Assembly (NCBI GenBank): GCA_016903675.1
Contig: JADQBA010000016.1
Location: 60,238-100,237 of the forward strand
DNA: 40,000 nucleotides
Reading direction: 5' to 3'
Source: Stigonema ocellatum SAG 48.90 = DSM 106950
Lineage (GTDB): Bacteria; Cyanobacteriota; Cyanobacteriia; Cyanobacteriales; Nostocaceae
Both the position numbers and the translations under genes were made by a program. Of the stretch, positions 5,853-37,025 are shown piece by piece. The notes under the pieces are model-generated. The model did no database searches, was not told the DNA's origin, and worked only from the letters and a program-made list of their open reading frames with translations. Numbering within the stretch: the stretch's first letter is position 1; each line of letters starts with the position of its first letter.

Positions 5853-5856
5853 CAAG

Positions 5857-7346: not shown

Positions 7347-7374
7347 GAAATGCCGAAAAGGGAATCTTCAGCTT

Positions 7375-7955: not shown

Positions 7956-8002
7956 AGCCTAATCGCCTCAACAACAACTACCAATCCACAATATATAATC
8001 AT

Positions 8003-8075: not shown

Positions 8076-8091
8076 AAAAATCCAAAATCCT

Positions 8092-15114: not shown

Positions 15115-16641
15115 TTGCGCTTCGGGCAGGAACGAAACGAGGAGCTTTACCGTCAGCACCTCGAAGTCGTTGAAGAACTTTATAAATGCAAGCTCAGGGA
15201 TTTGGTCAAACCCTGGAATTCCGAATTTTCCTCGCAGATGAAGCTAATTCGCCTGCGCGACCAAATCCGAGATTTTTTCGGACGCGATGAAGTTAACTTT
15301 GTAGCGATTGACGGCACCTGCAAGGCAGAGGAGACTACCCAATTTTTGTTGTTTTACGCGGGAGCCTATGGAGCCAGGGGGTCTCTCGACCTCAAGGGCA
15401 TACCCCCAGCGTTACGATATCATAAGTGGTCGCTGGAACAAGATGTGTCAGTTGTGGCGCAGGTGCCAATCCCCTATGCGGAATTAGAGGATGTGCTGGA
15501 AGAAGAACGCGACCCTTTTGCTGTTAGCGATCTAGAAAAGACGAACCTTGCAGGGTTGCATACTCTATTGATGCAATTATCGGAAGTATATTTGGCTTAC
15601 GATACCGTAACCAGTAGTCGCACAGACGCGCCAGACTTCGTACTGTTGGACCAGTCAATCTCCTCTGCTATGGCATCGAACATGGTGCAGCCTTCTGCTG
15701 TGCGGATGATTGGTAGTCCTTGGAGAGAGCGCCAGCTGACAGAGGCTGATGCCACAATTGCCTTAGCTCATCCCTTTAATTCAGATTTAGGTATTCCCAC
15801 CGTTAAGCGGTTTCGTCAGTATACAGGACTTTTAGCTCGAATGCAGCAAGGTGGAGGCACTGTAGACCTGGAACAGGTTGCTGGCGAGGAAGGTTTGGAA
15901 TTGGACGACCTGAACTCCGGTGTTGCCTATTTAACTAAGCGAAATTTAGCGCAATTATCATCAGATGGTAAGCGTCTGACTTGGATGGGACCGCACGATA
16001 TCGAAGCTTCTTGGGCATATACCAAGGCTGTTTTTCGACAAATTTGCGAAAAACTGTTCGTGGAGAAAGACCCCACAGCTTTGATGTATACCGTAGAAAC
16101 AGATGAAATGCGGCGACGCCACTGGATGAGTCCCCCCGATATTAAGTTTTTAATTGGGGTGGGTTTGCGATCGCTCATTGAGGAGTGCTGGAAACGCAAT
16201 GTATTGCTGGTAGGGTTGGTTAAAGATTCGTCTTCGGCGTATTTCACCCGCAACTATTTGGGGGTAATGCGATTCCTTGACGTGCTTCCGGAGTTGAAAA
16301 GCTTTTCTCGCCCCTTACCATCAACTGACCGCATTGCTTTAGAAATTTTACCGCTAATTAACGATGAACTAGAATCTCCTTGGTCAACGGTTGAGTTTGA
16401 CGGCGTATTTATGACGATGTTTGTCCGCCAAGAACCCGACGGTACTTGTGACCTCAGTGGAGTTAGGGGAGATATCCTCGCGCCCGAATGCCTGACGGCA
16501 CGTTCCTTGGCACAGTTTTACTTAAATCGAAAGCCATCGGGACCGTTGATGGGTCATGTGATTTTCGTCGAGCGCTTGCTGCCGTTTATAAGCAAATCTT
16601 GGCTGCTGGGAAGGTGCGTGTCTATCAGCGTGTTGATGTAA
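15115..16641 (+). CDS. NurA-like nuclease (TTG start inferred; the C-terminal 30-50 aa are doubtful)
   Basis: 508-aa ORF with NurA-type motifs FVAIDGTC, FVLLDQSISS, LVGLVKDSSSAYF and PSTDRIALEIL. The frame opens at 15100 and the first possible start is the TTG at 15115. Confidence 0.6.
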   Translation: MRFGQERNEELYRQHLEVVEELYKCKLRDLVKPWNSEFSSQMKLIRLRDQIRDFFGRDEVNFVAIDGTCKAEETTQFLLFYAGAYGARGSLDLKGIPPALRYHKWSLEQDVSVVAQVPIPYAELEDVLEEERDPFAVSDLEKTNLAGLHTLLMQLSEVYLAYDTVTSSRTDAPDFVLLDQSISSAMASNMVQPSAVRMIGSPWRERQLTEADATIALAHPFNSDLGIPTVKRFRQYTGLLARMQQGGGTVDLEQVAGEEGLELDDLNSGVAYLTKRNLAQLSSDGKRLTWMGPHDIEASWAYTKAVFRQICEKLFVEKDPTALMYTVETDEMRRRHWMSPPDIKFLIGVGLRSLIEECWKRNVLLVGLVKDSSSAYFTRNYLGVMRFLDVLPELKSFSRPLPSTDRIALEILPLINDELESPWSTVEFDGVFMTMFVRQEPDGTCDLSGVRGDILAPECLTARSLAQFYLNRKPSGPLMGHVIFVERLLPFISKSWLLGRCVSISVLM

Positions 16642-17483
16642 GAAGTAGTTTAGGAAGCTTTATCAGGAATTTTTGGAGTGAAGTCAATACTTCTAACTTT
16701 GCAGCAAAGGATTTGCAGTCAGTTAATAATTTAATCAATGAGTTAAGTGGAATTGAACAAACATTATTAGAGGCTGATGTTGAAAGTATTTTGACCCAAA
16801 TTAGAGATACTGCTCAAAATTTAGGTGCTAGAGCAAAGAAGGCTCTAAACGATTTACATGATACTCTAAGTAGTGCATGGGAAAATTCCCGTCGTAATCC
16901 TCCTCTTCCAGAAGAAAGTCGAGTCACAGTTCCTGAGTTAGTGTCTCAGATAAACGACTCTAGAAAAGATAACCTTTTTGTGATTCAGTCCCATGACCCT
17001 AATGAACTACGCTCTTTTAGCCGCTGGCTTGGTAACGAAGCTTATGAACAGCGTAGGCGAACAGGGCAAATTAGTCCTTTAGTCAGTTTTATATTTGATG
17101 AAGCTGATGAATTTATTCCTCAAGACGCTTCAGGAACTTATAGAGATTCAACCGAAATTGCAATGACTTTAGCCCGTCGGGGACGAAAATTTGGTTTGGG
17201 AATTGGTATTGCAACACAAAGAATTACCTACCTTGATACCAGCATCATAGCTCAACCCCATACATATTTTGTTTCTAAACTACCACGCAAATCTGACCAA
17301 GACCGAATTCGTGACGCTTTTGGTTTGAGTGATGAAATGTTTCGTCAGACAGTAAAGTTTAAAAAAGGTGATTGGCTCTTGGTCAGTTATGATGCGACAG
17401 GTTTAGAAGCAGTGCCGTTGCCAATTCATACTCCAAACGCGAATGAGAGGCTGGCGAATTTTCTACAAACTTATTCCGATTAA
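16488..17483 (+). pseudogene. HerA/FtsK-type ATPase, C-terminal half only (no Walker A found)
   Basis: Walker B is FIFDEADEFIPQD, followed by ARRGRKFGLGIGIATQRITYLD and FVSKLPRKSDQDRI, typical of the HerA C-terminal half. The frame is closed by a TAG at 16464-16466. Neither other frame encodes a GxxGxGKS motif upstream. The ORF overlaps the NurA ORF by 154 nt. Confidence 0.55.
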
Positions 17484-17521: not shown

Positions 17522-18541
17522 TTATGGATATCTAAGTTTAACACCACTACCACCATTGGGAGTTGGACAATCCCAGCGAAGGTCGCAAATAGCACAATCT
17601 TGTTCGCTAATAGCTCCGGGAACTGCTGGATACCATTGGTCATTGCAACGAGCTTGTTCAATCTGTACTACAGTCTGTGCAAACTCATTTACTGCATCAT
17701 CAATCTCATTGGGCGTGATGCTAACCTCCAGTAAAGCATTAACTGGGCGCTTAGAGGGACAAGTTGGACCATCAAGCTCATTAAGGAAATACAAAATAGC
17801 TTTTTGAGGTAAAACCCCATGTTTTAGCTCATAAAGTTTGGCATAAACCCGCATCTGGAATTCATAGTTTTCTAGGTCTTTTGGATTGACATTCAACAAA
17901 CTACTGCCTTTGTAATCCCACATTTCACAGTCGGCTGGGTTTCCTGCTGCGTCAGGTGCATCTACCAAAAGGTCAACAACACCATGAAGAATGTGAGTAT
18001 TGCGATCCGCTTGCAATCTATGTTCCGTATCTTTAACTCTTTTGTAAAGTGTTGGTCCTTCAAGGGCATTAAAATATTGAAGCAAACGTACAGCTTTGAG
18101 TCGAATATCTTGGGTTATTGCTCGAATTCCTTGGCTTTTTAAGCCATTTTCAACTTCAACAAAATACTTGACAATATCACTAGGAGGTATTGGCTTTGTT
18201 GATTTTGCTTTTTCTGCGTGTCTAAGCTCATCAAAGTAGTCAAGAATTTCTTCATCTTCTAAGATGTTGCAATTATCTGGCAGAGTACCCTTTGTTGAAG
18301 GGTCAATTTTTCCATGGAAATGGGTATGACAGCGATCTAAAACTTGGTGAAGAATAGTGCCAAAGTAAGCCTGGGTTTGATAAGCAGGTGCATATTTATG
18401 GACATTAAAAGCCCCATACTGACGAGCGCATCGTCTAAATGCGACTATATCTTGAGTAACGCTATAACGACGTTTTATATTTGGTGTTTTGGGTAAAGAG
18501 ATTGAAAAACCTTGAAAAGGTTTTCTTCTATTTGTGGTCAT
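17522..18541 (-). CDS. PD-(D/E)XK nuclease of the Cas4/AddB (RecB-like, Fe-S cluster) type
   Basis: 339-aa ORF. Motifs are GVVDLLVD...CEMWDYKGSS (D...ExK-type DYK motif) and QMRVYAKLY (QxxxY). One N-terminal Cys (FRRCARQYG) plus the C-terminal CAICDLRWDC (Cx2Cx5C) form the four-Cys signature. Confidence 0.75.
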   Translation of the reverse strand: MTTNRRKPFQGFSISLPKTPNIKRRYSVTQDIVAFRRCARQYGAFNVHKYAPAYQTQAYFGTILHQVLDRCHTHFHGKIDPSTKGTLPDNCNILEDEEILDYFDELRHAEKAKSTKPIPPSDIVKYFVEVENGLKSQGIRAITQDIRLKAVRLLQYFNALEGPTLYKRVKDTEHRLQADRNTHILHGVVDLLVDAPDAAGNPADCEMWDYKGSSLLNVNPKDLENYEFQMRVYAKLYELKHGVLPQKAILYFLNELDGPTCPSKRPVNALLEVSITPNEIDDAVNEFAQTVVQIEQARCNDQWYPAVPGAISEQDCAICDLRWDCPTPNGGSGVKLRYP

Positions 18542-18552
18542 AAATTTTTCCT

Positions 18553-20778
18553 TTATATCGTAATAGCGAACATATTCCGCTTAAATTCCACATGATTACG
18601 GTTGGGTACAGCAATATGATTTTTAATCTGGTCTTGCGTACCAATTAGAATCAAACCGTATTGTGCGCGTGAATAAGCTACATAAAGCAAACGAATGTCA
18701 TCTTCTATCGCTAAATCTTCTGGTTGTCTAGTATCTCTTTGATAAAGAGCTTGTCGAAATGGAGCTAAGGTTTGCTCAAGCATTTGTGCGGCTCCAACTT
18801 TCCCTTCTTGACCTTACTTTGTAACAACAAATACAAAAGGAAACTCTAAACCCTTTGATTGATGAATTGTCATAATGGGTAAATAGCCTTGAGGAACAAT
18901 GATTTCCTCATCTTCATCATCATCAATACCCGTCTCAATTAAGTAGCTGATAAACATGTTATAAAATTGATTGATAAAACTCTCATCAATGTCATTTCCA
19001 GCAGTATTAGCTCGTAAAACATCTAGGTTAAAACTGTTATAACCTTCAAAAAGACGAGTGACTTTAGAAAGACGTGAGTTTCTTACAGTATCTTGTTTCC
19101 ATGTCCGAAATGGTTCCCGCGAAAGAATACGATAGATGATTTCTAATAAGTTCAGATTCAGAAATCGACCTGGGTTATTTGGGCTTAGACTATTGGCACA
19201 TATTTGTGATAAAGCTGCATTACTATTGTTTAGGTAATCATCTAGTAAATTTGTAGGGACGTTAGGGTCATTTCTCACGCTATCGAGAGTATTGAACCAT
19301 TCCTGAACAGTGTCAATCCACTCCAGAGGTCTTCCCTGTGGGTCTATTTTCGATTGAAAAGTGTGATTTGGGTCAATCACTTGAACCAGTGCTGCTAGTA
19401 AACACTGAACTTCGTCACTCTCCATGAAAGATTTAGACCGAGGATTATAGATAGGAATCTCACGTTGCTGGAATGCTGTAATAAAGGGACCAGCATTTCG
19501 AGCCGAGTCTTTGGCACTTCGTAGCAGTAAAACGCACTGACTTAGATCGGAGATAATTTTATCACCTATCAAATGATTAATCGTAAATTCAGCAACTGCA
19601 TTAGCCAAGTCTCCTACTTTCTTTGTTTGAATCCAAGAAACAGCAGGATATGCTCCAGTAATAGATGAGGCAGCATTGACTGGTTTTTTACCTGGAGCAC
19701 GTACTCCTCGTGCTGTCATTTCTGGAAATGAAGTGATGTATTGGTTGAAAAATTTAACAATATCAGGATGAGAACGGTAGTTGTTATCAAGCTGAATTTG
19801 ATGAGGATATTTACTATACTTAGCCAGACAAGCTTCATCAAAATTCACCATACAGGTTACATTTCCTCCTCGGAAACGATATAAAGCTTGATCGTCATCG
19901 CCGACTACTGTGATATTGTGCGGTGGTTGATGGGCTAAAGCTAAGTAGATTTGCTCTTGAATTGGGTTAGTGTCTTGATATTCATCTACTAATACGTATA
20001 ACAAAGGAGGATTTTGGTCACTTCCCTGTAAAAACTGTTGACCTATAAGAGAGGTGATAAATTCAAGAAAACTAGCTTGGAGATGAGCGAAGTCGCAACG
20101 ATAGTTTTCCTTTAGAGCTTGAGCATACTGCTGATAAAACTTTGCTAAAGTTGCCCAGTGTCCACCAGCACTGAGCATTGCTTGTAAATTAACGTAGTCT
20201 TCTACAATGTGATTAAAAAGTGTGACTGCTGACTTGGCTCGCTTCCATTTATTAGGAGGATAGTTGGTGTTACGCCAATCGCGCACAGCATAATTAAAAT
20301 GTTGCCAGAAAGCTAAATCTTGAAATTTTGAAATATCAGCATAGCGGTAGGTAAATAAATCCTGTTCTACCTGATCCAGAAGGCGAACATTTTGATAGCT
20401 TGGATAGCGGTATTCTTGGAGAATATCATTACATAAACTATGTAGTGTTCCTATTCTGATATCAGCCAGATCAACATTTTTCAGGTTATGATCTGTATTT
20501 TGTAGTGCTACTAGGTAAGTCGCCAAGCGGTCTTCAAGGTTACGTGCTGCTTTAGCAGTAAAAGTAGTTAAGAGAATAGAGCGAGGTTGGACACCATTTA
20601 CACAAAGCAATTTCAAAGTTCGTGTTACTAGTACTTCGCTTTTGCCCGATCCTGGTCCCGCTAGAAGCCACAAGGGACCATTGCCATACTCCACAGCTTC
20701 TTTTTGCTTCTGATCAAGGTCGTAGCCACGTGCTGAAGGTTGAGCAAGACATATGTGGAAAGTGTTCAAATCAATCAT
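18553..20778 (-). pseudogene. UvrD/Rep-family SF1 helicase interrupted by a single in-frame TAA (18814-18816)
   Basis: The 654-aa ORF carries LAGPGSGKSEVLV (motif I), LVDEYQDTNPIQ (II), VGDDDQALYRFRGG (III), NYRSHPDIV (IV) and MTIHQSKGLEFPFVFV (V). It ends at the TAA. The 76-aa ORF 30 nt downstream is in the same frame and carries motif VI, RLLYVAYSRAQ. Confidence 0.75.
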
Positions 20779-21162: not shown

Positions 21163-22260
21163 ATGTTTGAACTTGTCATAAAAGGTGTTCCCGTACACCG
21201 TGGTCCTAAGCGCGAACATATTACTTATGTTGCAAGTACTACTTTTGGTGACATTGCTCGACTATTAAACGATGGTCACCTCTATATCCCCAACATCCCA
21301 GACTTGCCGGACTTTGCCCAACGTAAACTTAACCAGACACGAGTCAAGGCGATCGCCCGGTACATTCTGGAGACTTATCAGGATGGGACTACATTTTTCC
21401 CGCCAATTTGTGTTAATGCTCAACCATCACCAACTTACAAAGATGGTAGCCTCCATCTTCCTTACCAGTCACTTGGATTGCGCTTAACTGATGGTCAACA
21501 TAGATGTTTTGGGATTCGTCAAGCACTCCAAGATATCCAGACGCAACCGTCAGAGTATACCATCATCCTTTCACAATTAGAAATTGGCGTGTTAATATAT
21601 GCTGGACTGTCTTTAGAGGAGGAGCGTCAAGCTTTCCGCGACCAAAACCTGTTAGTCCAACGACCAAGCGTGTCGCTATCCCATGCTTTTGACAGGCGAT
21701 CGCCCACAGTTTTGATTGCCAAAAATTTACTAGAGCGAGTTCCTCATTTTCGCGATAATGTAGAAATGTTTGAAAGCGGATTGGGTCAACACAATCCCAA
21801 GTTGCTAACGCTTGCCACTTTGGTGACTGCAACCCAACATATGTTTTCACATTTGCAGTCAAAAGAGAATTTAGAGCCATTAGTTGATTGGGCAACGGCA
21901 TTTTGGACTGCAACAGCGAGTGTGTTACTCGATGAGCCTTGGACGATAAAAAGTAAAGAGGAACGTGCAGCTCAAAGACAGGATTCATTAGTAGTGAGCG
22001 CTCCTATATTTCAGGCATTGGGGATGTTGGCTCACGACTTATATCAAGAGGGTGTTCCAGCAGAAAATTTTGTCCAGTGGTTAAGCAGACTGCAAGAAAT
22101 AGACTGGCGGCGCTCTAATCAACTATGGCAAGAGCGAGGTATCACACAAGTTAGAAGTCAGGGAGAAGCAATTATTCCAAATACTAAGACAACTATTAGG
22201 GCTTGTCATAAGGTACTAAGAGAGTTGATTGGTGTTGCACCCGTTGGTGGTGTGATTTGA
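21163..22260 (+). CDS. DGQHR-domain protein (DndB/DpdB-like, ParB-fold)
   Basis: 365-aa ORF with the literal motif LRLTDGQHRCFGI. It is preceded by ataggagaag (SD-like) 4 nt upstream. Confidence 0.8.
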   Translation: MFELVIKGVPVHRGPKREHITYVASTTFGDIARLLNDGHLYIPNIPDLPDFAQRKLNQTRVKAIARYILETYQDGTTFFPPICVNAQPSPTYKDGSLHLPYQSLGLRLTDGQHRCFGIRQALQDIQTQPSEYTIILSQLEIGVLIYAGLSLEEERQAFRDQNLLVQRPSVSLSHAFDRRSPTVLIAKNLLERVPHFRDNVEMFESGLGQHNPKLLTLATLVTATQHMFSHLQSKENLEPLVDWATAFWTATASVLLDEPWTIKSKEERAAQRQDSLVVSAPIFQALGMLAHDLYQEGVPAENFVQWLSRLQEIDWRRSNQLWQERGITQVRSQGEAIIPNTKTTIRACHKVLRELIGVAPVGGVI

Positions 22261-23096
22261 GCAAATTCCAATCCTAAAACTTCTTGAAAGACATTGCGGT
22301 TACTAAACTTGCTGTCATAGCGCTCGTTCCACCACAACCAACCAGTAGAATCTGCCCAAACATTGTGCTTTTTGAGTACTTCTATACGGGTTAATGCCAG
22401 TCCTCCTAAGACAAACTCCGGTCGGCTCCAAGCCAATAGTTCATCCAACTCTTCTATAGACAAGCCAAATTTAAAGCCCGTGGTTCTAGTTTTATCAACT
22501 TTCAATAGCCCTCCCAGTGCAATGTACTCATAGCCAATGTCCCGATAAACACTAATCAAGGGAGCCAGGAAGCTTTTAGGTAATTCGTAATGTGGAGGAA
22601 AACAATCTAACTGGGGAACTACCTTTTGATGCCAATTGTAGATTGCATACCCAACTTGAACTACGCCAATCAAAGCATAGGTTCTTTGTTTATGCCAATA
22701 TTCTTCCCAAGTTAATCTGGCTAAATATAAAGACAGTAATGGCTCACCAAAAATGTCTTGCGTGAAAACAAAATCAGGACAAAATTGGTCACAACGTTCG
22801 AGATATTCTTTAACCTTCTGTCGTAAATGCTGTTCAGATGCCAAACGTAACTCACGCATCCACCGATGATTACGGTATTCACAATACTGTTGGTAGTACC
22901 AAGGGAAATCTTGATTTGTAAAAACACCACTGTCTATAAAAAAGGGCTTTTCCAAATCACGAATACTCTGAAGGAGCTTATTGTAACATGAAACAGGTGC
23001 AAGAACACCATAATTTCCTTCTATTTTTTTTAATCTTTTTAATAAACCTAACCAGTCCATAGAAAAAACTGGTAAAAATTTATTATTTAAATTCAT
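22206..23096 (-). CDS. Divergent TGT-fold (DpdA-like) protein lacking the Zn-binding motif
   Basis: 296-aa ORF. FFIDSGVF, YEYIALGGLL, FVLGGLALTRIE and WADSTGW parallel GDCGAFGY, YDYIAIGGLA, LFGVGRIE and SFDSAGP in the neighbouring 711-aa protein. No CxCxxC...H motif is present. Confidence 0.45.
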   Translation of the reverse strand: MNLNNKFLPVFSMDWLGLLKRLKKIEGNYGVLAPVSCYNKLLQSIRDLEKPFFIDSGVFTNQDFPWYYQQYCEYRNHRWMRELRLASEQHLRQKVKEYLERCDQFCPDFVFTQDIFGEPLLSLYLARLTWEEYWHKQRTYALIGVVQVGYAIYNWHQKVVPQLDCFPPHYELPKSFLAPLISVYRDIGYEYIALGGLLKVDKTRTTGFKFGLSIEELDELLAWSRPEFVLGGLALTRIEVLKKHNVWADSTGWLWWNERYDSKFSNRNVFQEVLGLEFAQITPPTGATPINSLSTL

Positions 23097-23165
23097 ATTT
23101 TTAATATTTAATTTCTTATTATAAGATTAACATTATTCTGGATGATAATCCTCTAAGTTTTCTGT

Positions 23166-25301
23166 TTAATTTTCACTATTTAGAAATTCTTGTAAACGAT
23201 TATAAAATATATAAGTATTGTGAAAACCACGTCTACGATTGCGGTCATTTCCTCTAAAAATAACTGCTTCTACCCCAATTTGTTCACAGATTTTACACTT
23301 ACATTCCTGCCAAGGTCTTGCTTCTAAAAGCTCTCTGTACATCTGAGTGTGTTGTCTTAAACGTCTGGCTTTAGCTGCTGGGTTGACCTTACCGTTGCGA
23401 GGTAATTCTAACAACTCGTCGAAAGCAAGCAGTTTATTGAGCGCATCATCTATCGATATTTTATCTTTATCATATTCTCGGATTGCGAAGAGTGCGTCTT
23501 GCTCAAGCAGCTTGAGAGTTTCACGCTCATAACCATTTTCCAATAAATGCTTAATTCGTTGTGAGTGCTTATCTACAAAAGGAATACGGACAGCAGCGTA
23601 ATTTTTCCCGCTCATAGTATGGTAGTTGTTTACTGCATCAAACCAAGCTTTACGCAACGGACCTGCAGAGTCAAAGCTAGTAACTCCCAAATGGCGGAAA
23701 TAAGGAATAGCTTCAATACGCCCCACCCCAAATAAATGTAGTCTTGTTGTGGGAGTCAAATGTGGATAAACCTCCTGTAGAACTTCTAAAATTTCTTTAG
23801 TTGGTGTTCTTGCTAGTCCACCTATAGCAATATAGTCGTACCCCATTTCAACCAGTGCTTTCACTGCATCAGCATATTTTTCTGGATTCCACCCTTGTGC
23901 AACACCTATAGGAGTAAATGTATACCCTCTGCTGTCATGTTTTCTGATAAATTCCTCTGCATTTCGCAAAGTAAGGTCATAGCGTTTCTCTCTTACTCCA
24001 GGTTGTGCAAAAGGTCCCACAATTAAGTGGTCAATACTGACTCCGTAATTGAAGCCCAGTTGCTCATAATAATCCAAAATTTCTACAGTATTATATGGAG
24101 GTTCTTCCTGTTTTATATATCCAAACGCTCCACAATCTCCCATGATTTTTCCTGGGAACCTAACAAAGTTGCGGATACCTCCTACTGCTTCTATGTCATT
24201 CTTTTTTGATTTTCTTTTATCAACAACTACTTTAGACACTAAAATTCCATGATAGTTCCGTTCTCCATATATTTCATGGGCATAGATATCGTCTGTATAT
24301 GCATTACGATTGGGACTAAATTTATCTTGTTCAAAGACATAGCCAGCATCTACTTTATCATCCCATTCTGGAATAAAGTATTGCATTTGTAAATGCTTAT
24401 TAACTGCTGGACGTAATTCCAGAAAGCGATGTAAATCTTCTTCTGTAGATTTTGGCTTACTTTTTGTTTGATTTTTAACTCTTGACTTTTTTTCTTTTGA
24501 AAATGAGATTCCTAAAGGTAAATATAATTGATTTGGTTGCTTATCTAAAACATCTTTTAGTATTTCTGGCTCTCTGTATAAATTTTGCAATAAATCAGAG
24601 TTCTCTCTCACTTCATTGGCAATCAGCTTGAGCAGATGTCCTTTTAATCCCACTAATGCACAGCTAAAACGTGATGCATCGGCATTGGAAAGAGTAAACA
24701 CTTCAGACTTAGCTTTGTCTGAATCTATATAATTTATGCTTTTATTTGAGGCGAAAAATATGAAAGTTTGGTTAGTATGAGTCTCAACAGGTAAGTTTAA
24801 AGCACGCAGGTATTTATCTCCAAGCAAGACAAACACCAAATCGTATCCAACAACTGCTTGTTTAAATGCCTCATGTATTCCGAGAAAATCTGCCCAAGAA
24901 CAAACCTCATTACTCTTCATCGAGTTGAATGTGACGGAGTAGGGAACGATAACTCTGTCTTCAGGGATTAACCCATACCCTGCTGAGATGATTTTCACAT
25001 CTACCACATATGATCCAAAGCGCTTACCGTCAGGTTGCCTCAGGCTGCGCAGGATATTTACACCCTCCATTGCCCGCATATGCTGTAAACCCGTGTACAT
25101 CTGAGCTGCTGGACAAGAAAACTCAGATAGTAATTGAGAGCGTTCGCTTAACTTCTTTGCGTCTTTAAAATCTTCGATTGTGAGCTGGTTTGTTGGCTTA
25201 AAGCGTTTTTCCCCTGTACAAGAGGTAATTACTAAAACGCGAGGCTGTTGCTTGATATGATTTAACGCAACAGCAGTTGTTGTTTCAAATAATTTAGTCA
25301 T
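23166..25301 (-). CDS. dpdA: Fusion protein: N-terminal domain of unknown function (about 330 aa) joined to a C-terminal DpdA-type guanine transglycosylase (TGT fold)
   Basis: 711-aa ORF. The C-terminal half has GDCGAFGY, DYIAIGGLA, HLFGVGR and SFDSAGP, plus the zinc motif CKCKICEQIG-(x)-FH (CxCx2Cx21H). The N-terminal half has VLVITSCTGEKRF, AAQMYTGLQHMRA, IISAGYGLIPEDRVIVPYSVTF and VFVLLGDKYLRAL. The ATG overlaps the queD stop by 8 nt. Confidence 0.65.
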   Translation of the reverse strand: MTKLFETTTAVALNHIKQQPRVLVITSCTGEKRFKPTNQLTIEDFKDAKKLSERSQLLSEFSCPAAQMYTGLQHMRAMEGVNILRSLRQPDGKRFGSYVVDVKIISAGYGLIPEDRVIVPYSVTFNSMKSNEVCSWADFLGIHEAFKQAVVGYDLVFVLLGDKYLRALNLPVETHTNQTFIFFASNKSINYIDSDKAKSEVFTLSNADASRFSCALVGLKGHLLKLIANEVRENSDLLQNLYREPEILKDVLDKQPNQLYLPLGISFSKEKKSRVKNQTKSKPKSTEEDLHRFLELRPAVNKHLQMQYFIPEWDDKVDAGYVFEQDKFSPNRNAYTDDIYAHEIYGERNYHGILVSKVVVDKRKSKKNDIEAVGGIRNFVRFPGKIMGDCGAFGYIKQEEPPYNTVEILDYYEQLGFNYGVSIDHLIVGPFAQPGVREKRYDLTLRNAEEFIRKHDSRGYTFTPIGVAQGWNPEKYADAVKALVEMGYDYIAIGGLARTPTKEILEVLQEVYPHLTPTTRLHLFGVGRIEAIPYFRHLGVTSFDSAGPLRKAWFDAVNNYHTMSGKNYAAVRIPFVDKHSQRIKHLLENGYERETLKLLEQDALFAIREYDKDKISIDDALNKLLAFDELLELPRNGKVNPAAKARRLRQHTQMYRELLEARPWQECKCKICEQIGVEAVIFRGNDRNRRRGFHNTYIFYNRLQEFLNSEN

Positions 25302-25683
25302 CTTCGTACTCTACCCAAGAATTAGGAGTTTCTGAAACCGCAACCTTCAGTTGTACATCAAGCGGCACCCGCTTCTTGGTTTCGTCATAAATATATTTAG
25401 CAATCATCTCAGATGTTGTTTCATATTCGGGAGGCATGACTTCGTTTAGGATGCAGTGGTCAAGTCCTCCCTTACTTACATCTTTCTTTGCCCAACGTAG
25501 AGTTCTGAAATCCGAGACCATCGCTGGATGCGGACAATACTCGGACAAATGCAGCGAATATGACGATGCCTCGATTCGCACTTTATAAGTGTGCCCGTGC
25601 ATTCTACCACAGGGTCCGTCGTAATCCTTAATATAATGAGCGCTATCAAACGTAAATTCTGTAACGAGTTTCCATTTGGGCAT
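25294..25683 (-). CDS. queD: 6-carboxy-5,6,7,8-tetrahydropterin synthase QueD (PTPS fold); start at 25683 preferred over the track start at 25743
   Basis: MPKWKLVTEFTFDSAHYIKDYDGPCGRMHGHTYKVRIEA carries the Cys and His-x-His catalytic and zinc signature of QueD/PTPS. Starting at 25683 gives 129 aa, a typical QueD size. Confidence 0.85.
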   Translation of the reverse strand: MPKWKLVTEFTFDSAHYIKDYDGPCGRMHGHTYKVRIEASSYSLHLSEYCPHPAMVSDFRTLRWAKKDVSKGGLDHCILNEVMPPEYETTSEMIAKYIYDETKKRVPLDVQLKVAVSETPNSWVEYEDD

Positions 25684-25820
25684 TTTATGTATCCCTATTA
25701 AACATAAATTGCTTTTTAGCAAAATAAGTTCATCTTTATACAATAAAAGTATTCGATTATACTTTTCTTAAAAAAGAATATTCGATATTACCGTGAATGT
25801 AAATACTTTGGCACAAACTG

Positions 25821-26541: not shown

Positions 26542-26576
26542 AATTACGAATTACGAATTACGAATTACGAATTATT
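26542..26576. repeat. Heptamer tandem array AATTACG x4 plus AATTATT, the same family as 5818-5852
   Basis: aattacg aattacg aattacg aattacg aattatt. The array overlaps the stop codon of the WD40 gene. Confidence 0.9.
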
Positions 26577-29500
26577 CACTCACTGCTCCCAAAGCTTTCA
26601 AAGTTACCTTTTCAGCTACCGTTAAACCAATTATACCTGTAATATTCATACCCTCATAAGGTCTATGTGCCCTAAAAGTTTTTAAACACTCACCTGTAGC
26701 CACACTCCAAAGCTTAATAGTCTCGTCTTTGCTACCACTGGCTAACATTTGACCATCTGGACTAAAAGCAACACACCAGATCACTTTCTCATGTCCCCGC
26801 AACGTTTTCAAAGTTACACCTGTATTCACATCCCAAAGCTTTACTGTTTGGTCATCGCTGCTACTTGCTAACATTTGACCATCTGGGCTAAATGTAATTG
26901 ACCTAACTCCGTGGGTATGTCCTTGAAAAGTACGTAGGCATTGCCCTGTACCCATATGCCATAGTTTAATGGTTTGGTCAGCGCTACCACTGGCAACAAG
27001 GCTACCACAGGGACTAAAAGCAACTGATAAAACCCAATCCTCATGTCCTACCAAGGTTGTTAAACAAATACCAGTACTAGCATCCCAGAGTTTAATGGTT
27101 TGGTCATCACTACCGCTGGCTAAGGTCGTTCCTTCTGGGCTGAAAGCTACTAACTTGACCCGATGAGTGTGTTCTTGCAGCGTATGTAAACACTCACCCG
27201 TGCGCCAATCCCAAAGCTTAACAGTGTAATCGTTACCACCACTTGCCAGAATTTGTCCATCTGGACTGAAACAAACTGATTGAACCCAACCACTATGTCC
27301 CCACAAAGTTCTCAAACATTCACTTGTCTTGGCATCCCACACCTTGATAGTTTGGTCATCACTGCTGGAAGCTAGGATTTGAGTACTGAGGTCACTGAGT
27401 GTGGCAAATGTGACTGCTGTGACTATATTAGTATGACCAAGCAATGTTCTTTTACATTGTGCCGTCGAAATATCCCACAGTCTGACTCTATGGTCTGCAT
27501 GACTACTTGCCAAGGTTTGACCATCCACACTGAAGGCAACAGATGACACCCAATTGCTGTAAGTTGAGAGCGATCGCAAGCATTGTCCAGAAGAAAAATC
27601 CCAAAATTTTACAGTTTGGTCATCACTCACACTCACCAACGTTTGCCCATCAGGACTAAAACCAACTAACCAAACCCTCTCGGTATGTTCCTGCAAAGTT
27701 TGCAAACAATCAACCGTTGAAACATCCCATATCTTAACAGTTTTATCTTCACTTGCTGTCGCCAGTAACCGACCATTTGCACTGAAGTTAACTGACCAGA
27801 CATAGCTGCTGTAACCTGGTATAACTTTAACACATTCTAGCGTCTGGATATCCCATAATTTCACAGTGTTACCATCGCTTCCCGTTGCTAGTATATGCCC
27901 ATCAGGACTCAAAGCAACAGAACGTTTCCAGTTGATGTTGGTTTCCAAACTCCGCAAGCACTGACCGTTATTAATATCCCAAACCCTTACAGTTTGGTCT
28001 TCACTGCTACTCACTAATATTTGTCCATTTCCACTGAACGCAACAGACCATATCCGACCTGTATGTCCAAGCAAAGCTTTAATGTACTGCCCAGTGTGTA
28101 TATTCCATAATCGCACAGTTTGGTCATTACTACCACTTGCCAAAATTTGACCATCTGGACTAAAAGCAACAGATTTCACCCAACCGGTATGACCTCGTAG
28201 GGTTTTGAGACATTGCCCAGTTTGAACATTCCACAATCGTACTGTTTGGTCATGACTAGCGCTTGCCAAAATTTGACCATCTGGGCTAAAAGCAAGACAT
28301 ACTACCCAACTAGTATGCCCGTTATAGCAGCGCAACTTTCGACCATCTGCAACTTGCCACAAACAAATCTCTTCATCAATCCCTATTGCTATCAACTTTC
28401 CGTCTGGACTAAAGGTTGCTGAGAAAATAACGCCTAAAGTTTGAGTCAATACAGATTTAGTCAAATCTGAGTTAGAGAAATTGACGAAGTGCAAATTCAT
28501 CCCCTGTAGGTACGCCTGCCAAACAGTTAAGTTAGAAAAATTATAGCCACTGAGGTCTACCTGCAATTGCCAGAGGAGATTGAGAAGATTACCCCCAGCA
28601 TATCCCGGTTTTCGGGGTGCATGGGAACGTAGTGTTGACAGCAACTGATTCAAGTGGTCTTGGACAATTTCCTGATTTCCCAAAAAAGTCAGAAGTCTAT
28701 CGGCAATAGGCTTCAGTATCAGCCTTGTTTGAGTATTTCTTAAATAATCTTTTGCCTGAGATTTGATGAGCGCATAGCTATTAAATTTTGTTATTTCTCC
28801 AGCTAAAATCTCTTGGCAAATCTCTTCGATAAATCGGTCAGTGATATATTCCATAACTACGGGTTGTTGAGAGAATTTTGCCAATTTTTTCTCAACTAAA
28901 GAGCGCGATATTAGAGAATCTAATGTTTCTAACAAATCCCGTGGTGCCACAGCAGGGATAATATCTCCTTGCAATTCTGCTAGTGATAACCATTCGCGAT
29001 TAATTGCCAGCCAGTACATGACCTGCTGTTCTAACACAGACAGGCGATTAAACTGTTGGTCAAGTAAATCTGAAATGTCTCCAAATACAATTGTGCCTTG
29101 CTGCAAAAACTCAGCAGTACTACCGTCAAATAACTCCTGAATGGTTGTCGCCACAATCTTGAGTGCCAGTGGATTGCCTGCATAGTAACTCACTAGCGTG
29201 CGACCTTCATCTTCAGATACAGAAAAGCCTTTTTCTAATAGAATAGAGTGACATTGTTCTTGAGGTAAACCAGATAATCTTAACGAATGAATACGTGAAT
29301 TTTTACCTTCTTTAACGCTAATTCCTCGAAGTTTTTCCCGACTGGTTAATACCAGGCAACTCTGATGGTTAGTTTCTCCCACACATCTAAAAAGTTGCCC
29401 ATATCCTTCATATCCTTGTCGATATGCTCCTGCACGTTTGTCACTGGATAAAATTGATTCTACATTGTCAAGTACTAACAAACAGCGTGCAGAACGGAGA

Positions 29501-31071
29501 TACTCAATTAATCGAGCAATTTTAGCATCCACTGTCTCGGGAAAAACCCTCTCCTGTTGATGAGAAAAAAAGTTAATGAGGTCAGTAAGAAGTTCTGGGA
29601 GAGTAGGAGCATTACGAAGGCTTCGCCAAATGAGATACTCAAATTCATCTTCAAGAAGCTGTGCTAACTTCACAGATAAAGCAGTTTTCCCAATTCCACC
29701 CATCCCAAACAAAGTAATCAGTCGGCTTTGGTCGTGAACAACCCATTGTTCTAGTTGTGCGAGTTCTTCTGTGCGTCCGTAAAACGCTGAAACATCGATC
29801 GCGTCTCCCCAGTCCTGTCGTTTACGAGTAGTTTTTGCCGCACTATATCTAGTTTGGGCGCGAACCTCACAATCAAAATTTAAAGCAGTCCCATTACCCC
29901 AGTCCATTTTTTCTTCCTGCGGTAAGGCAAATAAACTGCGGCGACGAAAATTTTTCCCACTTAACTGTAGCCAAGTCGGCGGTGTAGCGGCGGGATTTTG
30001 GCAAATGACAGGTAACCAAGAAGCACAGGGAAAGTCATCTTCTAAGCCCTGTAGCTTTCTGCGTGCTTGCTGTACCGCCAAGAATAAAGATAGTTGCTCA
30101 ATGGCGAAACCTTGTAAAAAATTATTAAAAAATTCCTGTGCCACCAGATTGGGCACAGACTCCCGCATCACAATTATTGTGGGAATATTCAGTTTCTCAA
30201 GAGATAAAGCCAATCCCAACCCATCACAGGAGTTGAAGATTGCCAGCTTTAAACCTTTATCAATGGCGACTTTGAGCGCTTCTTCTAATTGTTCAATCCC
30301 CAGGCTATTGTTGGTGGGATTTTCATTGATATAAATCTTGCCTGTTTCACCCTCAGTTTGGCTGTGACCTGCGAAAAAAAGGATATCCCAGCCATTGGAG
30401 TCCCAAAGCTGCGTGTTGAATTCCTGACGTTTTGGCTTGACAAGAAAGACAATTTCTGAATCAGGCAAGCTGTTAAGCCACTTGCGCTCTGCTTCCAAAT
30501 CAATACCAGCGCTGTTGCCCAGAATTGCCAAAATTCGCACTTTATGATGTTTGATTTGTAGCGGTGATATTTCGCGGCGTTTATACTCGGGTCGGGAAAG
30601 CGCCATTTCAGCCAGTGGATAATCCTCAAAAAAGTCACAACGATGCCACGGTAATCGCCGTAGCATCAGATCATTGGTTTCAAGAATTACCCGTATTTCT
30701 TCCTTTGGGTTGAGTCGAGATCGCACTTGGCGGCTAATGTTAACAATCCCCTCGGATCTCAACCAAGCATTCATGGATTCTGCTAATTTTTGACACAAAT
30801 CATGAAAATCAGTGATTGAGATGTTGGTGATCCCGCTAAAATCAATTTCCAGATCATCATCTTCAAGGGAACGGAGATACATGCGATCGCACAAGCTATC
30901 ATAATTTGACCGCCATTTTTTATACAATTCAATTAAATTAGGAGCAGGAGGCAACCAACCGATGAATTGCTCTGGTAGTGGATGACCTAATACCCACAGT
31001 TGGACAGTAATTCTTGGAAATCCCAGATACAACTCGCCATGTCCCAGATTAATGACAACTGACTTGCTCAT
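26572..31071 (-). CDS. STAND NTPase with CHAT/caspase-like domain, NB-ARC P-loop, pentapeptide-like linker and 14 WD40 repeats; start at 31071 preferred
   Basis: The His/Cys dyad context is ILFFAGHS...LAIFNSCDGLGLA. The P-loop is LFGMGGIGKTAL and Walker B is CLLVLDNVE. The linker NFSNLTVWQAYLQGMNLHFVNFSNSDLTKS follows. I counted fourteen xW(D/N) blade ends (VRLWNV, VKLWDI, IKLWDA and so on). The track's first 25 aa translate the octamer repeat. Confidence 0.8.
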   Translation of the reverse strand: MSKSVVINLGHGELYLGFPRITVQLWVLGHPLPEQFIGWLPPAPNLIELYKKWRSNYDSLCDRMYLRSLEDDDLEIDFSGITNISITDFHDLCQKLAESMNAWLRSEGIVNISRQVRSRLNPKEEIRVILETNDLMLRRLPWHRCDFFEDYPLAEMALSRPEYKRREISPLQIKHHKVRILAILGNSAGIDLEAERKWLNSLPDSEIVFLVKPKRQEFNTQLWDSNGWDILFFAGHSQTEGETGKIYINENPTNNSLGIEQLEEALKVAIDKGLKLAIFNSCDGLGLALSLEKLNIPTIIVMRESVPNLVAQEFFNNFLQGFAIEQLSLFLAVQQARRKLQGLEDDFPCASWLPVICQNPAATPPTWLQLSGKNFRRRSLFALPQEEKMDWGNGTALNFDCEVRAQTRYSAAKTTRKRQDWGDAIDVSAFYGRTEELAQLEQWVVHDQSRLITLFGMGGIGKTALSVKLAQLLEDEFEYLIWRSLRNAPTLPELLTDLINFFSHQQERVFPETVDAKIARLIEYLRSARCLLVLDNVESILSSDKRAGAYRQGYEGYGQLFRCVGETNHQSCLVLTSREKLRGISVKEGKNSRIHSLRLSGLPQEQCHSILLEKGFSVSEDEGRTLVSYYAGNPLALKIVATTIQELFDGSTAEFLQQGTIVFGDISDLLDQQFNRLSVLEQQVMYWLAINREWLSLAELQGDIIPAVAPRDLLETLDSLISRSLVEKKLAKFSQQPVVMEYITDRFIEEICQEILAGEITKFNSYALIKSQAKDYLRNTQTRLILKPIADRLLTFLGNQEIVQDHLNQLLSTLRSHAPRKPGYAGGNLLNLLWQLQVDLSGYNFSNLTVWQAYLQGMNLHFVNFSNSDLTKSVLTQTLGVIFSATFSPDGKLIAIGIDEEICLWQVADGRKLRCYNGHTSWVVCLAFSPDGQILASASHDQTVRLWNVQTGQCLKTLRGHTGWVKSVAFSPDGQILASGSNDQTVRLWNIHTGQYIKALLGHTGRIWSVAFSGNGQILVSSSEDQTVRVWDINNGQCLRSLETNINWKRSVALSPDGHILATGSDGNTVKLWDIQTLECVKVIPGYSSYVWSVNFSANGRLLATASEDKTVKIWDVSTVDCLQTLQEHTERVWLVGFSPDGQTLVSVSDDQTVKFWDFSSGQCLRSLSTYSNWVSSVAFSVDGQTLASSHADHRVRLWDISTAQCKRTLLGHTNIVTAVTFATLSDLSTQILASSSDDQTIKVWDAKTSECLRTLWGHSGWVQSVCFSPDGQILASGGNDYTVKLWDWRTGECLHTLQEHTHRVKLVAFSPEGTTLASGSDDQTIKLWDASTGICLTTLVGHEDWVLSVAFSPCGSLVASGSADQTIKLWHMGTGQCLRTFQGHTHGVRSITFSPDGQMLASSSDDQTVKLWDVNTGVTLKTLRGHEKVIWCVAFSPDGQMLASGSKDETIKLWSVATGECLKTFRAHRPYEGMNITGIIGLTVAEKVTLKALGAVSE

Positions 31072-31080
31072 GTTCTTGGT

Positions 31081-31120
31081 AGGGGTGTAGGGGTGTGGGG
31101 GTGTGGGGGTGTAGGGGCAT
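31081..31120. repeat. Octamer tandem array RGGGGTGT x5
   Basis: aggggtgt aggggtgt gggggtgt gggggtgt aggggcat, located 10 nt upstream (in minus-strand terms) of the preferred start codon of the STAND gene. Confidence 0.9.
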
Positions 31121-31363
31121 AATTTCAAATAAAATTTTCCGGACACCCTTAGTCTCCTACACCCTTACACCCTTTCTTTTCTTGACAAGCTACAGCCAAC
31201 AACTATAATACAATATGTAATCTATTTGATATAAGGATTGCCTTTGTTGTCTGTCTTTGAGTGAAAACGTAATTCCAGCCTAACGCACCTCTCTCACGCT
31301 TCTGGTGCGAAACTATTCATTTGCATTTACGACCTCAAAGAAATACCAACAAAGGAATATTCA

Positions 31364-34639: not shown

Positions 34640-34719
34640 AATCTCTTGCAAAAGTCATGAGTCTTGGTTTGCGTCTTTGCGTCTTTGCGTGAGGCAAAAA
34701 AAGATTTCTGCAAGAGATT
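34640..34719. repeat. Hairpin-type dispersed repeat (arms AATCTCTTGCARAARTC) flanking a TTTGCGTC octamer x3; fills the convergent intergenic gap
   Basis: aatctcttgca (34640-34650) is the exact reverse complement of tgcaagagatt (34709-34719). The internal sequence is tttgcgtctttgcgtctttgcgtg. Confidence 0.75.
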
Positions 34720-37025
34720 TAATCAACAGGTAATAGCGTAATAGTCTTGTCTCCATTACCACTAGCGACGGTCTTACCATCTGGGCTAAAGGCAACGCAA
34801 TAAATCGGTTCTTCATTTCCTGTAAAAGTACGGAGTTCCTTACCCGTATCCACCTGCCAAAACTTGATCGTCTTGTCTTTACTACCACTGGCTAGAGTCT
34901 TGCCATCTGGGCTGAATGCAACAGAATAGATTTCGTCAGAATGCCCCGTGAGAGTACGGATTTCTTTACCACTTGACAGTTGCCAAATCTTGATTGTCTT
35001 GTCTGTACTACCACTGGCTAGAGTCTTGCCGTCAGGACTGAATGCAATAGAATTAATTCCGCCAAATAAGTTAGAATGTCCACTGAGGGTAAGGAATTTA
35101 TTTTCATCCAGATACCAAATTTTGATAGTTTTATCATCCATAGCACCGCTACTAGCTAAAATCTTGCCATCCGGGCTAAAAGCAACGCACAAAACCTCGT
35201 CCGCATGTCCTGGAATAGTATATATTCCTTTATACTTTTCAATCGACCAAAGCTTGATGGTCTTATCTTTACTGCCACTGGCTAAAGTCTTTCCATCCGG
35301 ACTAAACGCTATAGAGTAAACCTTGTTTTCATGCCCTGTAAAAGTGCAGATTTCCTTTCCTGTCACCACATCCCACAACTTTATGATTTTGTCATCATAA
35401 CCACTAGCGATCTGCTTGCCATTAGGACTGAATGCAACTGAATTAACCCCTCCAAAATAGGAAGATTCTTCGTATCCCTTGAGAGTGCGGGGTTCATTGC
35501 TAGCCAAATTCCAAATTTTTATGGTTTTGTCATTACTACCACTGGCTAAAGTCTGACCATCAGGACTAAAAGCGACAGACATAACCTTATCTGAATGTCC
35601 TTTAAGAGTTCGTATTAATATTAAGTTCTGCTTTATTGGCTGTGATGTAAGTGTAGTGACATCTGGTGTAACCGCCTTAGTTATTTTGTCATCTAACAGA
35701 GGATTAGAGCCTTCCTCTAGCGCAACAGGTGAGGGATTTTGAGAAGAACTTGTTGGCGATGCCTGAGGTGGTACTGGTATTGGTGATTTGGAGACGGCGC
35801 TTTCTGGGGGTTCCTCGACTTGAGGCACCAGGGGAGGGGTTTCCTTGATAGAATTAAGTGGCGTGCGAGTACTGTCGGACTGCCATTCGGTTGCTGATGG
35901 CTGTTGAGGACTGGAGTCTTTTTTTACCACAATTGGTGATGTATTTTGAGAAGCACTTGTTTGCGGCGTCTGTGGTGGTACTAGTGCTAGAGATTGGGTG
36001 GTTGCTTGAGGTTTTTGAAGCTTGAAACCTTCTAGTTTTCTAATTTTCTCTGACGTACCCTGTGAGTCCTGCTCAGCCAACGTCAGCGACAGGGTTAATA
36101 CTTGCACTTCAGTCTGGATCTGAGCGATCGCGTACTTTAATTCCTCTATATGTTTTTGAGTATTTATACTTATTTCTCCCATAAGGGCATCAAGTTGAGT
36201 TAAACGCTGTCTGAGTTCATCGATATTATGCTCCTGCTGATTGCGCTGCATTTCCTGGATCTGTTGTTGAGTTGTTTTACTTAACTGTTGTGTTAAGGCA
36301 TCAAGTTGAGTCAGACGCTGGCTGAGCGGCTCAATCTGCTTCTGAGTACTTGTACTCAATTGTTTCATGAGGGCATCAAGTTGAGTCAAACGCTGCCTGA
36401 AATCGTCAATCTTATAGTCCTGCTGGTTGCGCTGTAATTCCTGGATCTGTTGAGTAGTAGTTCTACTTAAGTGTTGTGTTAAGGCATCAAGTTGAGTCAG
36501 ACGCTGGCTGAGCGGCTCAATGTGATTCTCAGTATTTATACTTAGTTGTTCCGTGAGAGCATCAAGTTGATTCAGGTGCTGGCTAAAAGCGTCAACATTC
36601 TGCTCCTGTTGGTTGCGCTTTAATTCCTGGATCTGTTGAGTAGTGGTTATACTCAACTGTTGTGTCAAGGAGTCAAGTTTAGTGAGACGCTGCGAAAAAA
36701 CATCGACGCTCAGTTGCTGGTTATTCCGTAATTGTTCAAGCTGCTGGCTAGTTGTTGTACTCAGTTTTTGCGTAAAGTTATCGAAGTTTTCGAGGCGCTG
36801 TCTGAGTGGGTCGATCAGTAAGTCTAGTCTGGTGAGGGCTGCTTGGTGATCCTGCTGGTTCAAATACTTTAACCTTTCCCGATTAGCTACGTTCAAGCCG
36901 ATAGTTAAAGTCAAAGGCGCTACGGCGTAGACAATTTGTTGAGTGACTGCTGCTGTGACGATGCCAATTGTAGACAGAGAAAGGGAGACATATTCGCTAA
37001 CTTCGAGCCAGTGGAGTTGTGTCAT
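34719..37025 (-). CDS. Membrane-anchored coiled-coil / Pro-rich linker / 7xWD40 repeat protein
   Basis: 768-aa ORF. It has an N-terminal hydrophobic segment, then repeated QRLTQLDALTQQLS units. Two P/S/Q-rich stretches follow. Seven WD blades (IKIWNL, IKLWDV, IKLWSI, IKIWYL, IKIWQL, IKFWQV, ITLLPV) complete the protein. Confidence 0.8.
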   Translation of the reverse strand: MTQLHWLEVSEYVSLSLSTIGIVTAAVTQQIVYAVAPLTLTIGLNVANRERLKYLNQQDHQAALTRLDLLIDPLRQRLENFDNFTQKLSTTTSQQLEQLRNNQQLSVDVFSQRLTKLDSLTQQLSITTTQQIQELKRNQQEQNVDAFSQHLNQLDALTEQLSINTENHIEPLSQRLTQLDALTQHLSRTTTQQIQELQRNQQDYKIDDFRQRLTQLDALMKQLSTSTQKQIEPLSQRLTQLDALTQQLSKTTQQQIQEMQRNQQEHNIDELRQRLTQLDALMGEISINTQKHIEELKYAIAQIQTEVQVLTLSLTLAEQDSQGTSEKIRKLEGFKLQKPQATTQSLALVPPQTPQTSASQNTSPIVVKKDSSPQQPSATEWQSDSTRTPLNSIKETPPLVPQVEEPPESAVSKSPIPVPPQASPTSSSQNPSPVALEEGSNPLLDDKITKAVTPDVTTLTSQPIKQNLILIRTLKGHSDKVMSVAFSPDGQTLASGSNDKTIKIWNLASNEPRTLKGYEESSYFGGVNSVAFSPNGKQIASGYDDKIIKLWDVVTGKEICTFTGHENKVYSIAFSPDGKTLASGSKDKTIKLWSIEKYKGIYTIPGHADEVLCVAFSPDGKILASSGAMDDKTIKIWYLDENKFLTLSGHSNLFGGINSIAFSPDGKTLASGSTDKTIKIWQLSSGKEIRTLTGHSDEIYSVAFSPDGKTLASGSKDKTIKFWQVDTGKELRTFTGNEEPIYCVAFSPDGKTVASGNGDKTITLLPVD

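Follow-up and report, generated by a model that had tools for sequence, protein, structure and literature searches.

A DUF6884 domain related to DpdC and fused to the base-exchange enzyme DpdA in Stigonema ocellatum and other bacteria

Among the described proteins of 7-deazaguanine DNA modification, the base-exchange enzyme DpdA of Salmonella Montevideo has Asp95, Asp130 and Asp256 as catalytic residues and contacts the base through His181 (PMC10164549), and the insertion of 7-cyano-7-deazaguanine (preQ0) also needs DpdB, a DndB-like ATPase of the ParB family (PMC10164549, PMC5699537). Salmonella DpdC converts preQ0-DNA to DNA carrying 7-amido-7-deazaguanine (ADG) in vitro, independently of DpdA and DpdB (PMC10164549), and DUF6884 has been named as the domain of DpdC in a genome-mining paper on dpd islands (PMC12235509). 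The Pfam curators describe DUF6884 as distant kin of the DNA-binding protein YaaA with CxxxK and LSAxxG motifs, propose that these motifs form an active site taking a flipped base, and record the domain “in combination with other domains” (PMC11701544). Here we analyse a stretch of 40,000 nucleotides from contig JADQBA010000016.1 of the cyanobacterium Stigonema ocellatum SAG 48.90 (hereafter the window), in which a single minus-strand gene (23166..25301) encodes a 711-residue protein consisting of a DpdC-like DUF6884 domain, a linker and a DpdA domain. With a probability that we put at about 60%, its N-terminal part is a DpdC-type enzyme domain and the fusion is bifunctional, inserting preQ0 into DNA and then hydrating it to dADG, the 2'-deoxynucleoside of ADG.

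Domain architecture and kinship to DpdC

The gene is one open reading frame (ORF) of 711 codons which, in the ORF list of the window, begins with ATG and contains no internal stops; its product matches the Pfam families DUF6884 and TGT (tRNA-guanine transglycosylase), and its closest relatives come from Scytonema, Nostoc and Calothrix. A preliminary description, made from the DNA letters alone, had divided the protein into an N-terminal domain of about 330 residues and a DpdA-type transglycosylase. The second part of this division is borne out by NF041059, the NCBIfam equivalog model of DpdA, which matches end to end, scoring 474.2 bits where 200 are required, its positions 1-405 covering residues 306-705 of the C-terminal domain (residues 306-711 plus stop codon, 23166..24386, minus strand). 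The PADLOC model of DpdA also scores 420 bits on the fusion protein. Residues D84, D119 and D239 (domain numbering) are invariant in an alignment that includes a canonical DpdA (A4), and sequence context, used here in place of a residue-numbered alignment, pairs them with Asp95, Asp130 and Asp256 of the Salmonella Montevideo enzyme, leaving the catalytic triad of DpdA intact. By eye, the His181 position (GVAHGW) corresponds to a glutamine that is nearly invariant in A4, namely Q164 of the DpdA domain (GVAQGW).

The N-terminal extension is likewise real, but it is shorter than the 330 residues first proposed: 305 residues precede the NF041059 match, and the interval originally assigned to the extension (24311-25301) takes in the first 25 residues of DpdA. 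An AlphaFold2 model of this part, built on an alignment of 25 sequences, has a mean predicted local distance difference test (pLDDT) value of 86; values exceed 90 at residues ~20-255 and drop under 50 across most of 260-300. From this profile the extension resolves into a folded domain of about 235 residues (residues ~20-255; 24537..25244, minus strand) and, C-terminal to it, a disordered linker of some 50 residues (residues 256-305; 24387..24536, minus strand). All of the sequence blocks quoted in the preliminary description were located in the translation: VLVITSCTGEKRF at residues 22-34, AAQMYTGLQHMRA at residues 65-77, IISAGYGLIPEDRVIVPYSVTF at residues 104-125 and VFVLLGDKYLRAL at residues 156-168, with key residues invariant across the family alignment, and the Lys/Ser-rich stretch KEKKSRVKNQTKSKPKS at residues 269-285 (24447..24497), within the predicted disordered linker. 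Among homologues the linker keeps its basic composition but not its sequence; the peptide LELRPAVNKHL just ahead of the DpdA methionine is conserved in frame.

A profile scan of the N-terminal 330 residues, as had been suggested, placed a match to PF21818 (DUF6884) at residues 101-178 with 36.2 bits, and with 34.3 bits when the full protein was scanned, in both cases above the gathering score of 30 bits. Together with the presence of the CxxxK and SAxxG motifs, this substantiates the resemblance to DUF6884 proposed in the preliminary description. The epithet “unknown” given to the domain no longer applies, since the DUF6884 member DpdC has demonstrated activity, and the family acts on nucleic acid rather than being a well-characterised one unrelated to it. 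In the 25-sequence alignment of the domain family (A1; mean column identity 42%), S27, C28, T29, K32, G71, Q73, S106, A107, Y109 and G110 are invariant, as are P120, Y121, F125, L159, L160, G161, Y164 and L165. These residues include the CxxxK motif S27-C28-T-G-E-K32 (25206..25223, minus strand), and the SAxxG and PY..TF motifs within I-S106-A-G-Y-G110 ... P120-Y121 ... T124-F125 (24927..24989, minus strand). An exhaustive profile search with the domain family, covering 1.84 billion cluster representatives, yielded 1707 members at E ≤1e-3, and the pattern [ST]C[ST]..K is present in 126 of the 150 best cluster representatives. Judged from this conservation, C28 is a putative catalytic nucleophile.

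Structural searches point to a YaaA-like alpha/beta fold. With the domain model, a Foldseek search of the kind proposed in the preliminary description found YaaA (5CAJ) as the sole PDB match at E ≤1e-3 (E 1.9e-4, probability 1.0, but a low TM-score of 0.35-0.39), and phage DUF6884 proteins in BFVD at E 4e-7 to 2e-4. No structure of DpdC or DUF6884 is deposited in the PDB, and PDB sequence searches with the domain alone and with the family profile gave chance-level matches only. At the sequence level, the domain family aligns to Escherichia coli YaaA by hhalign with 62% probability over 90 columns; PF03883 (YaaA/DUF328) does not match the domain at E up to 0.1, and the NCBIfam YaaA model, whose cut-off is 204, gives 19.8 bits. 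A tblastn comparison of the domain to 50,697 phage records returned no match.

As a reference for DpdC we used a 318-residue ORF of the Enterobacter cloacae plasmid pPOL9A (L002:6962-7918; the annotated coding sequence within it, L002:7067-7918, has 283 residues and a PADLOC DpdC score of 470 bits), which lies directly upstream of the annotated dpdA and dpdB genes in the same orientation as dpdA. Pairwise BLAST aligned the window domain to this protein at E 3e-6, with 25% identity over ~100 residues. When A1 was compared to an alignment of 18 canonical DpdCs (A2) using hhalign, the two families matched over 196 columns (98.4% probability, E 8.7e-15), a much stronger result than the pairwise one or the hhalign comparison to YaaA, residues 3-233 of the window protein being aligned to DpdC 1-236. 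Invariant residues were paired throughout (domain/DpdC): C28/C10, K32/K14, Y69/Y61, G71/G63, S106-A-G-x-G110/S84-A-G-x-G88, Y121/Y99, T124/T102 and F125/F103. As judged by these profile alignments, the N-terminal domain and the DpdC catalytic core are true homologues, though distant ones. Given that the canonical gene order dpdC-dpdA-dpdB on pPOL9A is also the order of the fused domains, read-through of adjacent dpdC and dpdA genes offers a simple origin for the fusion.

Recurrence of the fusion, split forms and stand-alone relatives

The survey of other cyanobacteria called for in the preliminary description was carried out by scanning GTDB with each species represented by one genome. It gave 138 relatives, and counts were taken from the best 80 loci. 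The fusion recurs widely: at 63 of the 80 loci a single stop-to-stop ORF spans both the DUF6884-like domain and DpdA, while neighbouring ORFs encode the two at 6, the domain lacks a DpdA in its flank at 9, and 2 are cut by contig ends. Fused loci were found in many cyanobacterial orders, in Bacillota (Bacillus, Paenibacillus, Desulfosporosinus and Dethiobacter), in Calidithermus and in the planctomycete ‘Candidatus Uabimicrobium’, four phyla altogether. Annotated examples reside on plasmids of Scytonema sp. NIES-4073 (714 residues, labelled tgt) and Allocoleopsis franciscana PCC 7113 (698 residues, labelled DpdA). The G+C content over the fusion gene is 0.36 (23001..25000), compared to 0.41-0.44 in the flanking kilobases, and this, along with plasmid-borne relatives of the operon, is consistent with horizontal acquisition.

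Split arrangements were observed in Tolypothrix PCC 7601 and Nodularia, where the dpdC-like and dpdA halves lie in different frames. The Tolypothrix DUF6884 frame stops inside the Lys-rich stretch, and the DpdA frame upstream of its methionine still encodes LDEFLKLPRAINTHL, the counterpart of EDLHRFLELRPAVNKHL in the window; since this linker peptide persists ahead of the split DpdA, the split form is derived there. We therefore rejected the two split pairs as an ancestral state, their frameshifts falling within the A-rich linker. The sites are L004 8740..8930 in Tolypothrix PCC 7601 and L005 8720..8930 in Nodularia (compare 24447..24497 in the window), and the frameshifts may reflect sequencing error, decay or a slippage-prone switch. 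The Tolypothrix DpdA, which is 79% identical to the window DpdA domain and starts at the equivalent of M306, looks C-terminally truncated.

Relatives of the domain were also identified outside the fusion. Including fragments, 109 of the 150 best cluster representatives have at most 300 residues, and other relatives form part of larger proteins or are joined to DUF7662. On two separate contigs of Syntrophomonadaceae type, neither of which shows a DpdA (L006 871..6273 and L091 5688..11004), relatives of 236 residues stand directly upstream of genes encoding McrB-like (MrcB_N and AAA_5) and McrC-like (DUF2357 and PDDEXK_7) proteins, and the three genes may constitute a conserved modification-dependent restriction module. 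A 382-residue product encoded beside a stand-alone relative was considered as a hidden DpdA and rejected (hhalign probability 0.1%, no Pfam match). Finally, in Tumidithrix and Phormidium tenue (L037 3368..6779; L041 6291..11062) a stand-alone domain has as neighbours queD or queC and a DndB-like gene in truncated form. Between these, DpdA is missing and unrelated genes are inserted; these loci look like decayed islands.

Genes surrounding the fusion

Directly upstream of the fusion gene is queD (25294..25743, minus strand; Pfam PTPS 98.5 bits), encoding a 6-carboxytetrahydropterin synthase for a preQ0 precursor step, whose true start is likely M21 at 25683. The queD stop overlaps the ATG of the fusion gene by 8 nucleotides (ATGACTAA), which suggests that the two genes are translationally coupled. 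Of the 63 fused loci, 25 have QueD in their flank. Two genes from the fusion on its other side, a plus-strand gene (21163..22260) encodes a DndB/DGQHR-family protein (Pfam DndB 269.8 bits; TIGR03187 DGQHR 113.8 bits), a candidate counterpart of DpdB; it is convergent to the intervening gene, which encodes a protein of 296 residues, and occurs at 15 of the 63 fused loci. Fused DpdA and this neighbour constitute a linkage of the dpdA/DpdB type, and the neighbourhood recurs in other genomes. Further on are a UvrD-like helicase (18814..20778, minus strand) and a PD-(D/E)XK nuclease (17522..18541, minus strand), both assigned by Pfam. The pairing of a UvrD/PcrA-like helicase with a PD-(D/E)XK protein after the DndB gene is also seen on plasmid1 of Scytonema NIES-4073 (L001 11635..14879) and at several other loci. 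In the large ORFs nearby, PADLOC detected nothing specific to DpdD-K, partial matches to DpdJ and DpdF being overlain by a far stronger match to SngC, and the helicase and nuclease are candidate restriction partners in place of DpdD-K.

The 296-residue protein is encoded 70 nucleotides downstream of the fusion gene (22206..23096, minus strand), its 3' end overlapping that of the DndB-like gene by 55 nucleotides (22206..22260). It has no match in Pfam, NCBIfam or PADLOC, and its 144 homologues, apparently all cyanobacterial, are ‘hypothetical’ wherever named; a tblastn search of the phage records was likewise negative. Nevertheless, for its AlphaFold2 model (pLDDT 81) the top 50 Foldseek matches in the PDB are all tRNA-guanine transglycosylases (best E 4e-8). 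Alignment to DpdA by hhalign extends over 57 columns only, around GY.YIALGGL, and by eye the invariant residues D55 (FIDSG) and D249 (WADS) resemble the two catalytic Asp positions of TGT. The gene lies close downstream of the fusion at 22 of the 63 fused loci. On the predicted fold, its product is likely a second, very divergent transglycosylase-fold partner, and this gene is a more novel and unexpected observation than the fusion itself. A proposed identity with the short TGT of Tolypothrix was rejected: that gene is the truncated DpdA copy noted above, and its match to the 296-residue protein is weak and local.

Elsewhere in the window, a complete Shango system (4490..10326, plus strand) comprises SngA with a TerB-C domain (4490..5776), the BrxD-like ATPase SngB (5857..7182; 584 bits) and the helicase SngC (8092..10326; 827 bits), and is preceded by a DUF815 AAA ATPase (3055..4380). 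Together with toxin-antitoxin genes, this system identifies the region as a defence island. Two plus-strand ORFs, 15115..16641 and 16488..17483, overlap without sharing a frame, and the latter matches the C-terminal part alone of the PADLOC HerA model (positions 382-527 of 532); the pair may represent a frameshifted HerA-type ATPase adjoining the nuclease and helicase. Beyond queD lie two very large WD40-repeat proteins, of a kind typical of filamentous cyanobacteria (26572..31146, 1524 residues, and 34719..37025, both minus strand), and the centre of the first resembles, by eye, an NTPase of the STAND/NACHT type.

Proposed function and comparison with known systems

For a bifunctional DpdC-DpdA enzyme, we infer substrate, product and residue roles as follows. 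The DpdA domain would replace a guanine of the DNA by preQ0, to whose synthesis the upstream QueD would contribute, and would probably need the DndB-family neighbour to act as its DpdB. Next, the inserted 7-cyano-7-deazaguanine would be flipped out by the tethered N-terminal domain, which would hydrate the nitrile of this base to the amide, producing dADG at the same site, with Cys28 as a potential nucleophile acting via a thioimidate intermediate and Lys32 assisting. The basic, disordered linker could hold both active sites to one segment of DNA, and perhaps stands in for the C-terminal extension of DpdC. Of the roles originally suggested for the domain, namely to supply, process or target the inserted base, processing is thus the best supported by virtue of the kinship to DpdC, and the other two less so.

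A number of observations weigh against this assignment. Similarity to DpdC is remote, with 19% identity in the hhalign alignment and, for the PADLOC DpdC model, a best score of 33.2 bits (E 7.8e-9) at residues 23-134, covering profile positions 5-112 of 319; in addition, the C-terminal region of canonical DpdC (~80 residues, 237-318) has no counterpart in the window domain. BLASTP found no similarity between the DndB-like protein of the window and canonical DpdB, so that their equivalence is at the family level only. A DpdA domain is present in only 31 of the 150 best cluster representatives, and stand-alone relatives ~45% identical to the window domain occur with no DpdA nearby, some adjoining McrB-/McrC-like genes; one (L089 6001..6711) lies on a phage-like contig that, besides numerous small ORFs, has genes for NrdD, a LysM protein and an RNA ligase. 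The subfamily thus has no exclusive tie to preQ0 chemistry. The literature searched yielded no catalytic mechanism for DpdC, which makes the role given to the cysteine conjecture, and no measured DNA modification of organisms carrying the fusion.

Several of these observations bear on an alternative in which the domain retains the fold and a related mechanism but catalyses another reaction, converting preQ0 in DNA (dPreQ0) to 7-carboxy-7-deazaguanine (CDG) or an amidine, or acting on a different flipped base. The remoteness of the kinship and the occurrence of the subfamily in other defence and phage contexts are compatible with such a change, as is the glutamine that, by eye, occupies the His181 position in the fused DpdA clade, and the second TGT-fold gene of the operon hints at extra chemistry. 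We nonetheless consider another reaction unlikely: all residues invariant in the N-terminal core of canonical DpdC are retained, nitrile hydration on DNA is the sole activity demonstrated for any family member, and the protein has no added amidotransferase or ATP-dependent domain.

Alternatively, the domain could be a non-catalytic DNA-binding or base-flipping reader similar to YaaA, which recruits or positions DpdA or senses modified sites. Its sole solved structural relative is indeed the DNA-binding YaaA (PMC11701544), the K, Y-G, SG-YG and PY motifs are common to both, a basic linker suits DNA tethering, and a location upstream of McrB-/McrC-like genes in two contigs would be a fitting place for a reader of modified bases. 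However, the cysteine of CxxxK is invariant both here and in the enzyme DpdC, whereas YaaA has a proline, and some 27 strictly invariant residues at 42% mean identity suggest an active site beyond a binding surface. Furthermore, insertion by canonical DpdA requires DpdB, not DpdC (PMC10164549), and we regard a purely reading function as doubtful.

Activity on the free base, by which preQ0 would be converted to ADG that DpdA then inserts directly, appears very improbable; a fused enzyme could pass a small-molecule product on to the transglycosylase, and queD belongs to the same operon, but Salmonella DpdC works on preQ0-DNA without DpdA and DpdB (PMC10164549) and the fold family binds DNA (PMC11701544). 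We give next to no credence to the fusion being a recent accident or, as the preliminary description had entertained, a separate gene joined by an assembly or sequencing error: the linker DNA is A-rich with an indel-prone A7 run and the halves are in different frames in some relatives, but the single ORF recurs at 63 independent species-level loci, and LELRPAVNKHL is in frame across homologues and encoded upstream of the split Tolypothrix DpdA.

On a broader scale, queD, the DpdC-like/DpdA fusion, the 296-residue TGT-fold protein, the DndB-family protein and the UvrD and PD-(D/E)XK proteins in place of DpdD-K might form a distinct 7-deazaguanine DNA-modification system of cyanobacteria, with a product or logic unlike that of Salmonella Dpd. 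We offer this as a speculative and rather improbable proposal. If true, the system might, for example, make a modification other than dADG, or perform two base exchanges by two transglycosylase-fold proteins, and a role of DUF6884 as a general flipped-base enzyme could explain the relatives beside McrBC-like genes. The conservation of an additional TGT-fold gene and the candidate restriction partners from outside Dpd suggest a wider diversity of deazaguanine-based defence than the dpdA-K model.

Both domains and the pathway are known, and the fusion architecture is already present in public annotation, where RefSeq names these proteins simply ‘DpdA’. We found no published account of a DpdC-DpdA fusion in the literature searched, earlier mention being possible in older papers outside that search; the fusion is thus common in cyanobacteria and apparently undescribed. 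Genome surveys that count dpdC as a gene of its own will underestimate its frequency in cyanobacteria and Bacillota. One survey scores a cyanobacterial island as lacking dpdC (PMC12235509), and Hydrococcus rivularis is an example of an island so scored. As a natural ‘Rosetta stone’, the fusion ties DUF6884/DpdC chemistry to DpdA base exchange by an independent line of evidence. It could further serve as a compact means, within one polypeptide, to write dADG into DNA, and as a convenient construct for studying the catalytic mechanism of DpdC, for which Cys28 and Lys32 would be the first targets.

Compared to its closest described relatives, the window protein combines familiar parts in a different arrangement. 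Stand-alone bacterial DpdA (bDpdA, NF041059) has ~400 residues, and the C-terminal 406 residues of the fusion match it at the equivalog level; the fusion differs in its 305-residue N-terminal extension, in the Gln replacing the equivalent of His181, and in having beside it another TGT-fold gene, itself very divergent. DpdC shares with the window domain the conserved T-[ST]-C-T-x-x-K, Y-x-G, SAGxGL and PY..TF motifs and membership of the DUF6884/YaaA-like superfamily; it is a free protein that works independently, whereas the window domain is covalently joined to DpdA through a basic, disordered linker. YaaA (DUF328/PF03883, 5CAJ) likewise has Y-x-G, SG-YG, PY and [DE]-x-Y-[LF] motifs, reading LSGLYG...PY, but carries a Pro at the position of the invariant Cys (ISPAK) and, as a DNA-binding peroxide-stress protein, is without a link to 7-deazaguanine genes. 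Within DUF6884, YfjM of Bacillus subtilis stands alone and has been linked to DNA lesion recognition (PMC11701544), in contrast to the window domain, which is fused to a base-exchange enzyme and is ~100 residues longer than the 135-position PF21818 core. At the level of the system, the canonical Dpd cluster possesses the restriction genes dpdD-dpdK, whereas the module in the window has a UvrD-like helicase and a PD-(D/E)XK nuclease instead.

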